Source: Botryllus schlosseri (taxonomy: Eukaryota). From it: DNA of 64,000 nt. Location of the stretch: assembly GCA_051294905.1 (NCBI GenBank), contig CM119372.1:20586001-20650000 (forward strand), in the 5' to 3' direction. Position numbers and translations under genes: made by a program. Shown here in pieces: positions 6,501-11,000 of the stretch. Below the pieces are notes generated by a model. The model was not told where the DNA came from, ran no database searches, and worked only from the letters and a program-made list of their open reading frames with translations. Numbering within the stretch: the first letter of the stretch is position 1; every line of letters starts with the position of its first letter.

Positions 6501-7139
6501 ACTTGCTCTGATGCATCCCATCAAAATCATTGGTTACTCACATACAATAACAATGTGCTGTTGTACATCGACATGTATGTTTTCGGAATTGGCGAATAAA
6601 GGGGTTTCTGATATATCCGTGATGTCCGGGTTCGTGCTTTGGATTTTCCAGAGTCAAAATGTCTGAATAAAACACCTCCTTGACGATGGTTGGTATGTGG
6701 ATAACGGTGTTCGGAAAACGGTTGGATTTATGTCACCCATCGCGATAACAACTCCAGGTCGAGTTTTCCTCCCACATGTTTACTATATTGTGTCTTTATT
6801 GGTCAATGTATGTCTCGACGTTCAGTTTGAAATCGGAAACCCTGATAAAGTACGTAACCGGATCCGGATATCAACTGTGAATCGATAAACCAATGAACAA
6901 TATTCAAAGTAAACATGTTACACCCTGTGTTTCCACGAAAAAATACCATCCAGACATACGTCGCGCTTGTTTGCCCACACCAGTATACGCGCAAATGGAG
7001 GTGTGTGACATTGCATGCAATGTGTTGGTATACAAACATCGATCCACAGACATTATCATAGCCGGTAGTTTTGATGTAGATCGAATGTCACCTGATAACA
7101 ATGTCATACCAATAAGCCACATTGCAATGACTCTGAGTC
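544..7139 (+). repeat. Left arm of element A (6,596-bp inverted repeat)
   Basis: Reverse complement of 8061-14656; no net length difference; one mismatch noticed at 6406/8794. Confidence 0.95.
5950..6390 (+). repeat. Tandem array of ~38-bp units (consensus GTAACAAACCTTTTTCACTTGGAAATATATTTTTTCCCTGG); mirror copy at about 8810-9250
   Basis: About 10 degenerate head-to-tail units visible, with no unique spacers. Confidence 0.85.
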
Positions 7140-8060
7140 CGCGCTATTACATCGATATTTCGACACCGTTCACTGATTTACTCGATGGTGTTATCGTGTT
7201 GTAACATTACAAGATAGTCATGGCCCTATCTCCGGACAGATCACCCAGACCAATTGGATACATCGGTCAATATCCGTCGTGTTGTCGACACCGAAGTTTT
7301 CTGCTGAGACTACAGCGTTTGATCTAGGTGAACTATCGAAGTACGGTGCTCGAAATGATTGCGATCAGTCTTTCAGTCACGATCAATGGATGTCGCTACT
7401 CCCACATAACGACTCCAGATAAATATCGTGCAAATGTCGGACTGATATTGTGATCCAATAAGGTATGTTTCTGTGGAATGAAGACTGCAATCGTACACCA
7501 CAATAGAACACTACCTCGTGATTTCACACGCAATCATAAAACACACTTTCGTAAGGGTCTAGCTCGTCCGGTGACATTTCGAAACGGTCGTCACCACAAG
7601 AGATCGGGGTTGGTCTCGTCATATCGGAGCATTTTGAAACGGTATCGTCACAAAGCTATTGACGTCGATTCTGTTGGTCATGTCAATCCGTTTCGCAATC
7701 CATCGTTTTTCGAGTCCCTGCACCATAGTGTTACGACACAGACAAGAAGCGTCGGTGGAAATAATAAAACACGAAGGCACACTTTGGTGTTATTTGACAT
7801 GGATTTTACACCCGACGAACCTCACATTCGAGCGATGCATTTGAATGGCGATTGTATTATTGATGTCCAGAGAAAAGAAATGTATCGATTTATTGGTTTC
7901 GTACATATCCAGCAAAAACCTGGGTATATGATTGTGCATGGTTCGCATATTCGACTGTGAACGCCCAATTGGTATATGTTGTACAGTTCACTTTCACCGT
8001 CGTGCGAATAACCCATGTTACGGTTCCGTGTTAGTGTGTCTGTATGTCATGCTTCAGATT
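7140..8060. other. Unique central loop/spacer of element A (921 bp)
   Basis: Not mirrored; homologous over its length to 41519-42426. Confidence 0.9.
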
Positions 8061-11000
8061 GACTCAGAGTCATTGCAATGTGGCTTATTGGTATGACATT
8101 GTTATCAGGTGACATTCGATCTACATCAAAACTACCGGCTATGATAATGTCTGTGGATCGATGTTTGTATACCAACACATTGCATGCAATGTCACACACC
8201 TCCATTTGCGCGTATACTGGTGTGGGCAAACAAGCGCGACGTATGTCTGGATGGTATTTTTTCGTGGAAACACAGGGTGTAACATGTTTACTTTGAATAT
8301 TGTTCATTGGTTTATCGATTCACAGTTGATATCCGGATCCGGTTACGTACTTTATCAGGGTTTCCGATTTCAAACTGAACGTCGAGACATACATTGACCA
8401 ATAAAGACACAATATAGTAAACATGTGGGAGGAAAACTCGACCTGGAGTTGTTATCGCGATGGGTGACATAAATCCAACCGTTTTCCGAACACCGTTATC
8501 CACATACCAACCATCGTCAAGGAGGTGTTTTATTCAGACATTTTGACTCTGGAAAATCCAAAGCACGAACCCGGACATCACGGATATATCAGAAACCCCT
8601 TTATTCGCCAATTCCGAAAACATACATGTCGATGTACAACAGCACATTGTTATTGTATGTGAGTAACCAATGATTTTGATGGGATGCATCAGAGCAAGTG
8701 AATATTTGATTACACAAATGTATCGGAGTCGTTGTTGGTGTATATTTTGTCACTGTCTGCTGTAACAATATACAAAAAATATCAAATTGATCGGTGTAGT
8801 TGTCAGTTTTCAAAACGAAAATGGTATTGGTACTCAGGTAAATGATAGTTTTCCAAACGAAAAGGGTTTGTTGCCTGGGGAGAAAAGGGTTTGTTGCTCA
8901 GTGAAAATGGTTTGTTGCTCGGGGAAAAAATATATTTCCAAGTGAAAAAGGTTTGTTGATCGGGGAAAAAAATATATTCCCAAGTGAAAAAGGTTTGTTA
9001 CCCAGAGAAAAAATATATTTCCAAGTGAAAAAGGTTTGTTACCAAGAGAAAAAATATATTTCCAAGTGAAAAAGGTTTGTTATCCAGGGCAAAAATAGAT
9101 TTCCAAGTGAAAAAGGGTTTGTTACCCAGGGAAAAAATATATTTCCAAGTGAAAATGGTTTTGTTACTCGGGTAACGCTAAACTCCCAAGGGAAAATGGT
9201 AATTGTACACAAGTAACGACTGACCTCCTGGTGAAAATGATATTTTTACTTGGGTAGGTATCGTATGTTCAGTGTCAGTGATGTTGTTAAACGTTGTTGC
9301 TTGACATCGGTATCCCGTTAGTGTATTATTATGAGTGTGAAAAGGATTTACACATCTTGTGCAGAGTATCAGAGTGTTGCGACGGTAAAGATATTTTTCG
9401 CGTGACGAACCAAGATCGTTGTTTAAATGTTAATGCATTTCGATTACCGAGTTGCTGTACAATAGAGATGAATCTACATTAGACCGTGCTGTGTACTTCG
9501 ATTAAAACCACATGTAAATCTATTCGCACAACTCGATGATGTTGATGTAGTGTTACTAAAATAAATTATTACCTATTTACACAACATCAAAATAACAATT
9601 CATGTCGTAGCAGGTTTCTTGAACTCGTGCTTGATGAAAACGATTGGCGACAAGTATGCTTTTGTGTTTGAGTGAAAAAGAATTATTTAGAGTAGTGACA
9701 GTTTGTGACCAACGAATAAAAATCGATCATGGTATTACAATATACGCTTTCGTCAACATAACGACTTGGCGCAGGAGAAACACTTTCACGTTTTTCAATA
9801 ACCAGAATCTTGAAACATGTTGCTTGTGTGATTTACAGCTGGTGCACAAAGGTTAGCGACGTTTTTTAATATAGTTCAACTTTCTAGTTGTTTGGATGTG
9901 AGGCTCGGCGCTTCTCGCTAGTAAAGTAGATTGTTTTGTGCGTTAGATTTGTGGTAAGTAAGTCGAATACATACTCTTTTGTGAAAGTAACTGTATTACT
10001 GCAATATCATTGGTAGGTCTCTGAAGCAGTCACCGTGGTTTTAATTTTGAAAGATGTCGCGAAGTCGGTATAATGTTTTCTAAAAGTCAAACTCGGACGG
10101 ATATCATGGCTATGTAGGACTTACGATAAACATTATACTTATACAACTTTGTTACAAGAACTATGATATTTCTGTAAGTACTATAGTCGTGTGTTGGATT
10201 ATTTGAATATTTAGATACGTAACCATTCGTATGAAAAAGTTCTTGTGACATCAGAACAGTTTGTAGAGTCAAACCAATCATTCAGTTTCGTAGTGTGAGG
10301 ATATCGAGTAAAGTCGATTACTTTGTGTGATGTAAATATCCTTCGTACTTTTGTAAGAGTTGTGAGGATGATCATTCGTATCCTACGAGGTAGCTAGTTG
10401 ATACTACAAAATATTGAATGATCGCTAACACACTGAGTTCATAACCCAAGATAGTGAAAATTGTGTACTCTTAGACTTACATAATTCGTATCCAGCAAAA
10501 CGATAGACACCAAAGGTTCGATGGAGTTTAAATCTAGATTGTATTAAGCGAAGTGATGAGTATCTCCAGTAATAAAATCGAAACGACCAAAACAAATTTT
10601 CTGTGTCTTGTAAATAACTATTTGGTATGATATTACTTGAGTGTGTGACAATTCGTATCCGTCGAGGTTGAATGTTCAGCCATATCGAAATGAATCCAGA
10701 TCACATGAAGTATACATTAATCGCAATAGAATCGACGAGAATGTTAACCACGTAGAGTGTGTTTGTTTAAAAGTTATCTCCAATACGGTTACTTCGATCG
10801 GTATTAATTCCATGTCACACAAAAGCATGTAACCTTTGTACAGTTTCGTAGTACGGGAATATCGAGTGAAGTTGATTATTTTTGTGTGACGAAAATATCT
10901 TGTATTGATATTGGACACTGGTTTTGTTACCCAAGTGAGTGAAAATTGTTCTTGGCTGGACAGATATGATTAGTATTTAGAAAAAAACGACTCACGCCGA

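Follow-up and report, generated by a model that had tools for sequence, protein, structure and literature searches.

The loops at the centres of two long palindromes in a 64,000-nucleotide stretch of Botryllus schlosseri DNA (the window) are probably the single-copy centres of helper-dependent Polinton/Maverick satellites, with one small protein gene and with edges that have been inherited rather than cut anew. The two palindromes, A and B, are separate insertions which have Polinton/Maverick ends and 6-bp target duplications of their own. The main content of the loop, overlooked in the first-pass annotation, is a 91-codon gene that is intact in B and frameshifted in A.

Element A (544..14656; 14,113 bp) is palindromic and non-autonomous, has the ends AGTAGT...ACTACT, and lies between two copies of the target duplication CACACG (538-543 and 14657-14662). 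Its left arm (544..7139, plus strand) pairs with its right arm (8061..14656, minus strand), with a single mismatch at 6406/8794. Element B (36045..47900; 11,856 bp; like A, assigned to neither strand) has the same ends, the target duplication AACGGG, and arms at 36045-41518 and 42427-47900 with a single mismatch at 37741/46204. The arms of an element are 99.98% identical to each other, are 6.6 kb (A) and 5.5 kb (B) long, make up about 93% of the element, and include internal tandem repeats of 41-bp and 33-bp units. The flanking DNA is unique for each of the two. A third element, the coding Polinton/Maverick C (48793..64000, minus strand), starts with AGTAGT, encodes an integrase with a chromodomain and an ATPase, and continues beyond the window. 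It shares with A and B the terminal sequence only (75% over 240 nt for A) and is a candidate for the kind of helper that they would need.

The (AGT)2//(ACT)2 end motif and 6-bp duplication described for Polintons (PMC8097293) are both present in A and B, and the likeness to published Polinton/Maverick elements extends to a size near 12-14 kb (PMC8097293; bioRxiv 10.1101/2023.08.22.554363). However, the terminal inverted repeats described in these sources measure 0.1-1.5 kb, as against 5.5-6.6 kb in A and B, and the polymerase, integrase, ATPase, protease and capsid coding of an autonomous element was not found; the one gene recognised is an orphan in the 0.9-kb loop. A comparison of 16 ORFs of C with A and B recovered no Polinton core gene, the one match being weak (31 aa, E=0.017), and Pfam gave no match for the six ORFs of 100 aa or more inside or overlapping A and B, a scan outside which the mirror pair 39971-40345/43600-43974 fell. 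Polinton ends and duplication without the core genes, together with a coding relative in C, place A and B among the non-autonomous Polinton derivatives. Given the shared ends, and these only, A and B may be mobilised in trans by Polinton enzymes.

The left junction word of A, GACTCTGAGTC (7129..7139, plus strand), is a 5-1-5 palindrome that forms the final 11 nt of the arm. The right one, GACTCAGAGTC (8061-8071), becomes a 6-1-6 palindrome with its flanking bases (8060..8072, plus strand), and the words of B occupy 41508..41518 and 42427..42437 of the plus strand. A 10-bp perfect palindrome, CATTGCAATG (7120..7129, unstranded), abuts the left word of A, and a CCAAT word is found at 7109-7113. 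The first-pass annotation had described the junctions as exact to the base and the 11-mer as an interrupted palindrome, and both descriptions hold. Pairing is continuous to 7139/8061 in A and to 41518/42427 in B but for the one mismatch of each element, and it ends abruptly at the loop, where 14/60 and 16/60 of the first bases match across, which is the chance level; the window has four copies of GACTC-W-GAGTC, one precisely at each junction. The 60-nt run of A/B identity across the left junction is unremarkable at the observed divergence (p ~0.15), and at the right junction A/B substitutions occur 5 and 10 nt into the loop.

The comparison of junctions draws on two full copies, A and B, which are related and are not independent observations; hence their common junction counts as a single event, and two such copies cannot demonstrate a special cis site, the weaker part of the earlier claims. 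Nor is such a site needed, because arm-to-arm copying fixes an inherited boundary and the A/B differences of the inner arm are all mirrored; the identical edges of the two loops were most likely inherited by both copies. The 11-mer is best read as microhomology from one ancestral copy-back event, a suggestion of the first-pass annotation that is preferred here by inference rather than demonstration, and it is possibly a promoter word in addition.

The core of the element (6620-8060) is the best conserved part between A and B, with 1333/1409 aligned bases identical (94.6%), and it exceeds the longest alignable patch of the outer arms (658/739, 89.0%; Fisher p=5e-6). Exchange and constraint are the candidate causes. 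It had been claimed that the loop and some 0.7 kb beside it were among the best conserved parts; this stands for the core, but the well-conserved stretch of arm is about 0.52 kb, the inner arm of A (6620..7139, plus strand; 96.1% identical to B). The frame-breaking indels of 8, 5 and 1 bp in that account do exist, but the 8- and 5-nt ones lie in the inner arm together with a 15-nt one, and the indels of the loop measure 1, 4, 19 (or 14+5) and 1 nt. The loop itself (7140..8060 in A, 921 nt; 41519..42426 in B, 908 nt; plus strand, unpaired in both) is 93.8% identical between the copies and does not exceed the inner arm in conservation (p=0.085, trend opposite). No reading frame with a synonymous excess was found in the inner arm. 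Over these 520 nt, 20 substitutions and 3 indels separate A from B, each present in the left and the right arm alike, while the inner arms are identical inside each element. Hence, after A and B diverged, the arms have been homogenised within each element, as close as 19 nt to the loop.

The earlier argument that frame-breaking indels make the loop non-coding is wrong for its 3' third. The gene of B (P0001; 42045..42320, plus strand) is intact, encodes 91 aa, belongs to an orphan family, and is predicted with low confidence to be mostly beta. In A the copy (7680..7960, plus strand) has a frameshift near 7773, so that the frame matched by 7680-7772 is not that of 7775-7951, and it is altered at residues that are invariant or nearly so in the family; the alignment used has just this one A/B indel inside the gene. 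The 5' part of the loop of A (7140..7679, plus strand) is non-coding and may hold the end of the promoter and the 5' leader of the gene. Database homologues form 6 clusters (among 49 and 213 candidates) that are 46-95% identical. In the alignment of 11 rows, from which P0008 was omitted as a duplicate of P0003 with an N-terminal extension, the starts are aligned, the lengths are 90-95 aa, and 29/91 columns are invariant. Substitutions are conservative: for four of the five distant homologues the observed level was matched by at most 5/300 neutral simulations, P0003 being the one without significance (39/300), with the caveats that the five comparisons have one branch in common and that protein databases contain only open frames. 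Under neutral drift a frame would stay free of stops with a probability of 0.03-0.19 per comparison, indels not counted. Of the 11 database members, 7 lie on contigs that measure 0.92-1.19 kb, as would be expected if assembly stopped at the arms. Two other proposals were rejected: the 160-aa ORF 7478-7960 as the gene, which is broken in B and has no atlas match, and P0004-P0006 as homologues, as these (3/4 matches) match long repetitive proteins over short segments.

In the A/B comparison no part of the core is less conserved than the gene (21/275 against 55/~1140 sites), and pN/pS is 0.066/0.105 (~0.63). Among the variants listed in it from the sequencing runs, 4/5 change the protein, and 0/12 listed indels (of 16; 4 runs) fall inside it (p ~0.1 alone). 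Six-frame synonymous tests of A against B, in which the frameshift was not accommodated, gave no clear frame. Searches of Pfam, PHROGs and PDB sequences with the loop protein returned no family (best E 0.005, for 2/11 members), and the atlas search returned just unnamed bacterial clusters (at most 0.90), with a recognition of 1831 against the usual 2300. The structure models are poor (pLDDT 57 and 39), and no clear fold emerged from the searches (best Z 5.7; 0 BFVD matches at E 0.001), which does not demonstrate a new fold. With regard to a PC4/Pur-alpha-like single-strand binding fold, the comparison with Pur-alpha (Z 5.6, rmsd 2.4, 50 aligned) comes from the helix-less model of pLDDT 57 and is tied with beta-propeller blades. 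With the protein or its alignment, 0 of 155 and 0 of 293 stretches were confirmed among metagenome contigs, 0/10 and 0/165 among viral contigs, and 0/140 among prokaryote genomes; phages gave no match, and the junction pattern had 0 matches in viral contigs.

In Polinton replication a racket intermediate has been put forward from sequence inference (PMC4196379). For A and B, a helper polymerase would carry out protein-primed, strand-displacement copying, and the displaced strand would fold up as a racket, its arms paired and its loop open. Copying at the racket stage would equalise the arms of each element, and since the loop is closed to it and differences between the arms are erased, the boundary would maintain itself. 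The boundary may stem from one copy-back event: the self-complementary word that flanks the gene is both a direct and an inverted repeat, so a nascent strand could turn back there. Fold-back at short interrupted inverted repeats has been described (PMC4689423), and phi29 protein-primed replication without its SSB yields short palindromic DNAs (PMC2175359, citing Esteban et al., 1997). The palindromic character of the junction word is accommodated by the model, which does not predict it. The loop might be one transcription unit for the 91-aa protein, with a start just inside the left junction, and its gene would be dispensable in cis, since A inserted recently while carrying a broken copy. As a best guess within this model, and a tentative one, the protein could be a small accessory factor that binds nucleic acid or modulates the helper. 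A bolder and doubtful proposal makes A and B true satellites of animal polintoviruses, with a hairpin genome and an apex gene cassette, where the 11-mer would be the site of entry and core exchange and the protein would bind the open loop or redirect the polymerase or capsid of the helper.

Sequencing runs give further evidence on the loop. The stretch in question is present in 20 runs from 10 studies under two organism labels; no RNA run is on record among those listed, which has no bearing on expression. The depth of arm over loop is 2.06 in run X14, the expectation for one loop per two arms, and 3.64 in run X1, at odds with it. Raw RNA reads of run X23 over 42040-42149 are about 10:1 toward the sense strand of the gene (depth 6.4-7.5 against 0.55-0.75), in a sample of 210 reads from ~3% of one run of which 114 were placed in part only; the main pile lies in the arm beside an A-rich array, a likely site of internal priming. 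A go-back joint in X1 that spans the left junction (41553->41502) has a depth of 184 in a bin of ~268,000 and was set aside as a rare short duplication.

It is rather unlikely that the 11-mer is instead a working cis site (for turn-around, nicking or cassette exchange) and the loop a cassette that entered or was swapped at a hairpin apex. Without the loop and one 11-mer, the arms would close in a perfect hairpin apex, which would make the loop an apex cassette, and a palindrome that ends exactly at the boundary is improbable by chance (per base, 0.13-0.20% for a 5-1-5 palindrome and ~0.6% for any stem of 5 with a 0-3 nt centre); a second palindrome, of 10 bp, adjoins the word. Module exchange also predicts the sharp edge of conservation near 6620, where identity rises from 83% (6400-6619) to 96%; that edge, however, is 520 nt away from the 11-mer. 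Although 41447-41559 and 42422-42460 are free of variants among the 40 of 166 variants listed, the identical run is expected by chance and the hairpins at the junction words are weak (-0.6 and -2.1 kcal/mol). None of the 10 joints listed from 4 runs lies at either junction or supports excision of the loop, and none of the 24 loose ends listed of 504 is there, in a weak test, as the reference had 34 nt of right arm and contigs lose rare forms. Besides the integrase, no recombinase or nuclease family was found among the 21 window proteins. Likewise unlikely is that the promoter of the loop gene holds the junction, with CCAAT, CATTGCAATG and the 11-mer as palindromic factor sites, a start ~25-30 nt inside the loop and the whole core under constraint; this differs from the satellite reading, with which it is compatible, in what makes the boundary persist. 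The words of the junction region are candidate matches to AP-1, C/EBP, CCAAT and TATA sites. Relative to that of run X14, the depth of run X8 rises in the bin 41545 (3.8-17 fold in 15 loop bins against 0.9-2.4 fold in 8 arm bins) and drops at 42370, just beyond the stop codon, but contig depths cannot reveal starts or levels, and X8 is RNA by guess and may contain DNA. Synonymous divergence in the gene (6/57, 10.5%) is like that of the outer arms (11%), so the non-coding core (~5%) would be constrained; however, 6/57 also fits 5.4% (p=0.09), and 1.1 kb of constrained non-coding DNA with several indels would be unusual in a promoter.

That the loop is a mere spacer which stabilises a giant palindrome, its frame the decaying relic of a parental gene, is improbable. 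The recent move of A with a broken copy, the pN/pS ratio and the missing family assignment all suit it, but the frame has stayed open, with length and start conserved over 46-67% identity, and both the conservative substitutions and the avoidance of stops run counter to decay. Very improbable is that the loop encodes a structured RNA or folds functionally as single-strand DNA, although its 5' part, which is non-coding, is ~95% conserved and two 120-nt windows on the minus strand of A have folding z-scores of -3.3 and -2.6. B shows no such values (lowest z -1.9 of 30), and the whole-loop z is -1.1 (DNA) and -0.33 (RNA). The two Rfam matches (both E=2) score 21 bits where the threshold is 100, a tRNA search found none, and 0/146 predicted pairs show compensatory changes, with little power from two sequences; the RNA function once suggested has thus gained no support from Rfam, folding or covariation. 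Hardly credible, lastly, is a flip-flop switch or a palindrome made by assembly. A dyad site with an asymmetric centre does flank the loop in two inverted copies, as it would in any inverted arms that end in a palindromic word, but between 99.98% identical arms the invertible segment of the first-pass annotation would have no consequence, because its product is the same molecule as the whole element turned round. Fold-back chimeras are a known artefact of long-read sequencing; against them stand the target duplications, unique flanks and one arm mismatch of A and of B each, the recurrence of the stretch across runs, studies and labels, and an X8 contig (42319-42451) that crosses the right junction with 25 letters on the arm side.

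If the satellite reading is right, arms that stay 99.98% identical while the copies diverge by 5-17% would be a direct record of racket-type copying, and the position of the loop boundary would mark its reach along the arms. Likewise, a 12-14 kb element that has kept one 91-aa orphan gene and none of the core genes speaks for a relationship of satellite and helper in an animal genome. No account of elements like these was found in open-licence papers, the scope of the search, with subscription journals and Repbase outside it.

Several known systems share features with A and B. Foldback transposons such as Drosophila FB and Galileo have a loop between long modular inverted arms that contain tandem repeats, and such arms are common to them and to A and B. 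Elements of that type have a 7- to 11-bp duplication and a DDE transposase partner; A and B, unlike these, have the Polinton-type end motif and 6-bp duplication, and searches with the loop ORFs found no transposase family. Protein-primed replication also has palindromic by-products, namely the palindromic DNAs of phi29 (PMC2175359) and adenovirus genomes that are duplicated across their inverted repeats. These resemble the proposed origin of A and B in that one end is copied back and so equals the other, duplicated arms surround a unique centre, and helper enzymes are needed, but the phi29 and adenovirus palindromes are laboratory products, whereas A and B are an integrated, inherited family with a gene of its own. 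In the models of ODIRA and tandem inverted duplication, inversion junctions keep a short pre-existing inverted repeat, as in A and B, but the spacing described is below ~70 bp and the forks are chromosomal, as against a 0.9 kb loop and a palindromic junction word (PMC4689423). The Polintons described from butterflies (bioRxiv 10.1101/2025.02.07.637071) carry capsid and protease genes in their repeats and LINE/LTR cargo, whereas A and B are ~93% arm with the sole gene found in the loop; like A and B, they have expanded inverted repeats (~2 kb) and polB-less derivatives that are still mobile.

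Base pairing ends abruptly in both of the giant palindromic elements, A and B. The arms of element A (543/544-7139 and 8061-14656/14657) flank a 921-nt loop, and those of element B (36045-41518 and 42427-47900) flank a 908-nt loop. The first-pass annotation had claimed exact junctions bounded by a palindromic 11-mer, and this is borne out: pairing stops at the bases it named, and the window contains GACTC-W-GAGTC at the four junctions and nowhere else. Palindromes of the 5-1-5 type end at 0.13-0.20% of positions, and those of any type with a stem of 5 and a centre of 0-3 nt at about 0.6%; being so rare, a palindrome at the boundary is a coincidence worth notice. 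The junction is common to A and B by descent and hence counts as one event, not two. Each element carries a single arm mismatch (6406/8794 in A, 37741/46204 in B), about 1 in 6,000 sites, which suggests either that the insertions are very young or that the arms are still being corrected. Every arm also holds a 41-bp tandem array (5943-6390 and 8810-9257 in A; 40110-40780 and 43160-43830 in B), A-rich in the direction away from the loop and differing between A and B in unit number and sequence.

Both elements run from AGTAGT to ACTACT, each within a 6-bp target duplication of its own (CACACG in A; AACGGG in B). According to PMC8097293, this end motif is the most frequent one in Mavericks, and Maverick duplications have this length. 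Element C, the coding Polinton/Maverick of the window, starts at 48793 with the same end motif, has an inverted repeat (48793-49504; right copy from 63666, extending past the window end), and encodes an integrase with chromodomain (53771-54841) and an ATPase (55550-56161), both recognized by Pfam. Other reading frames without Pfam hits are presumed from resemblance to be a polymerase gene in pieces (56781-60153), a major capsid (49980-51251), a protease (49588-50043) and an OB-fold single-strand binding protein (213 aa, 62893-63534, plus strand), the last of which tblastn did not find in A or B. Since A and B have Polinton ends and duplications but have only terminal sequence in common with C, apart from one weak match among its 16 ORFs (E=0.017), they are non-autonomous derivatives, and they probably depend on a helper. 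Just inside the termini, 33-bp and 58/59-bp repeats of B (36091-36288) and A (581-894), related to the start repeats of C, are candidate helper-binding sites.

The part best conserved between A and B is the core of inner arm and loop (6620-8060 in A), with 1333 of 1409 positions identical (94.6%; inner arm 487/507, loop 846/902). Much of the outer arms is unalignable; their longest alignable patch has 658/739 identities and the stretch 6400-6619 has 171/206. The core exceeds the outer patch (p=5e-6), with a sharp edge near 6620 (6610-6620, 83% to 96%), 520 nt outside the junction; the edge may mark a recombination breakpoint or the limit of a module. The junction itself is no conservation peak: A and B are identical over 60 nt across the left junction, which is within chance expectation (p about 0.15), and near the right one substitutions lie at distances of 5 and 10 nt. 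Core conservation may reflect either recent core exchange or constraint; the synonymous divergence of the loop gene (6/57 sites) is compatible with 5.4% (p=0.09) and with 11%. The indels of 8, 5 and 1 bp reported earlier need correction: the inner arm has three, of 8, 15 and 5 nt, and the loop four, of 1, 4, 19 and 1 nt. The earlier observation was largely right and its interpretation partly right.

Most likely, the junction is a scar that both copies inherited and that copying between the arms keeps sharp. No difference separates the two inner arms of one element, yet 20 substitutions and 3 indels separate A from B there, and the closest of these ends 19 nt short of the loop; therefore the arms have been copied from one another since A and B diverged, almost to the boundary. 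Such copying would stop at the non-homologous loop and erase arm differences, so that an inherited boundary would maintain itself without a special site. The likely vehicle is an intermediate of Polinton replication, which is protein-primed: a single strand folded into a racket (PMC4196379). Palindromic by-products can arise in protein-primed systems (PMC2175359), and short inverted repeats tend to survive at fold-back junctions (PMC4689423). A self-complementary word that flanks the gene left and right is both a direct and an inverted repeat, and we infer that the 11-mer was the 11-nt turning point of a single copy-back event.

The loop is most likely a one-gene cassette. The 91-codon frame is intact in B (42045-42320); the copy in A has a frameshift near 7773 and changes at family-invariant or nearly invariant residues. 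Among database homologues of the B protein, P0002 (the single candidate) is 95% identical and P0003 (the only one kept of four matches) 67% (E 6e-33), and profile searches found 6 homologue clusters among 49 and 213 candidates. Among the homologues, identity to B ranges over 46-95% and length over 90-95 aa; their starts align, and in the alignment of 11 rows 29 of 91 columns do not vary. For four of five distant homologues the substitutions were more conservative than under neutral drift, only 3, 5, 2 and 0 of 300 simulations reaching the observed score; this did not hold for P0003 (39 of 300). Seven of the 11 database members come from contigs of 0.92-1.19 kb, which suggests that they likewise sit in loops. 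Sequence-family, structure-model and fold comparisons assigned the protein to no family or fold. Counting against a gene, no part of the core varies more between A and B than this frame (pN/pS about 0.63). A relic gene within a mere spacer is an improbable reading, and a structured RNA is less probable still.

Reads over the B core (40830-42460) were examined in 4 of 24 listed runs, on a reference with 34 nt of right arm, so that the entries shown bound common variants only. The arm/loop depth was 2.06 in X14 and, for 41050-41489, 3.64 rather than 2 in X1, perhaps from related copies with other loops or from library bias. The loose ends at 41061, 41191 and 41814 indicate that the core has diverged relatives. 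None of the 24 loose ends shown (of 504) lay at a junction and none of the 12 indels shown (of 16) inside the gene; 4 of the 5 gene variants shown change a residue. From about 3% of X23, raw single-cell RNA, 210 reads were placed (114 partly); over the gene start they are mostly sense, assuming the usual strand convention. A larger pile in the arm, upstream of the A-rich array, may be internal priming.

A working site at the 11-mer is unlikely, even though the palindrome is improbable by chance and deletion of the loop with one 11-mer would leave a perfect hairpin apex: its hairpins are weak, no recombinase was found among the window proteins scanned, and none of the 10 joints listed for the four runs falls at either junction, so that no alternative product was seen on that reference. 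Next in probability, and also doubtful, is a role of the word in a promoter. It agrees with the putative motifs CCAAT and CATTGCAATG nearby and with the depth profile of X8 (possibly RNA; arm/loop 0.42), whose excess runs from the 41545 bin to past the stop codon, in contigs that cannot show starts or levels. An invertible switch or an artefact can practically be dismissed: inversion between identical arms changes nothing, and the target duplications and the presence of the stretch in 20 public runs (10 studies, two organism labels) argue against an assembly artefact.

In mode of action, A and B would resemble copy-back satellites of protein-primed replicons. They differ from an autonomous Polinton in repeat length and gene content, and from FB/Galileo foldback elements in ends and target duplication. 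The literature searches turned up no published account of such elements; the closest described there are Polintons of butterflies, which have repeats of 2 kb and derivatives lacking polB. The window also holds two related 0.6-kb hairpin elements (60572-61159, inside C, and 17326-17917), 70-72% alike over about 390 nt, and a 1.46-kb element (33130-34593) with imperfect inverted arms of about 0.55 kb (80%) and a partial relative at 15557-15865.
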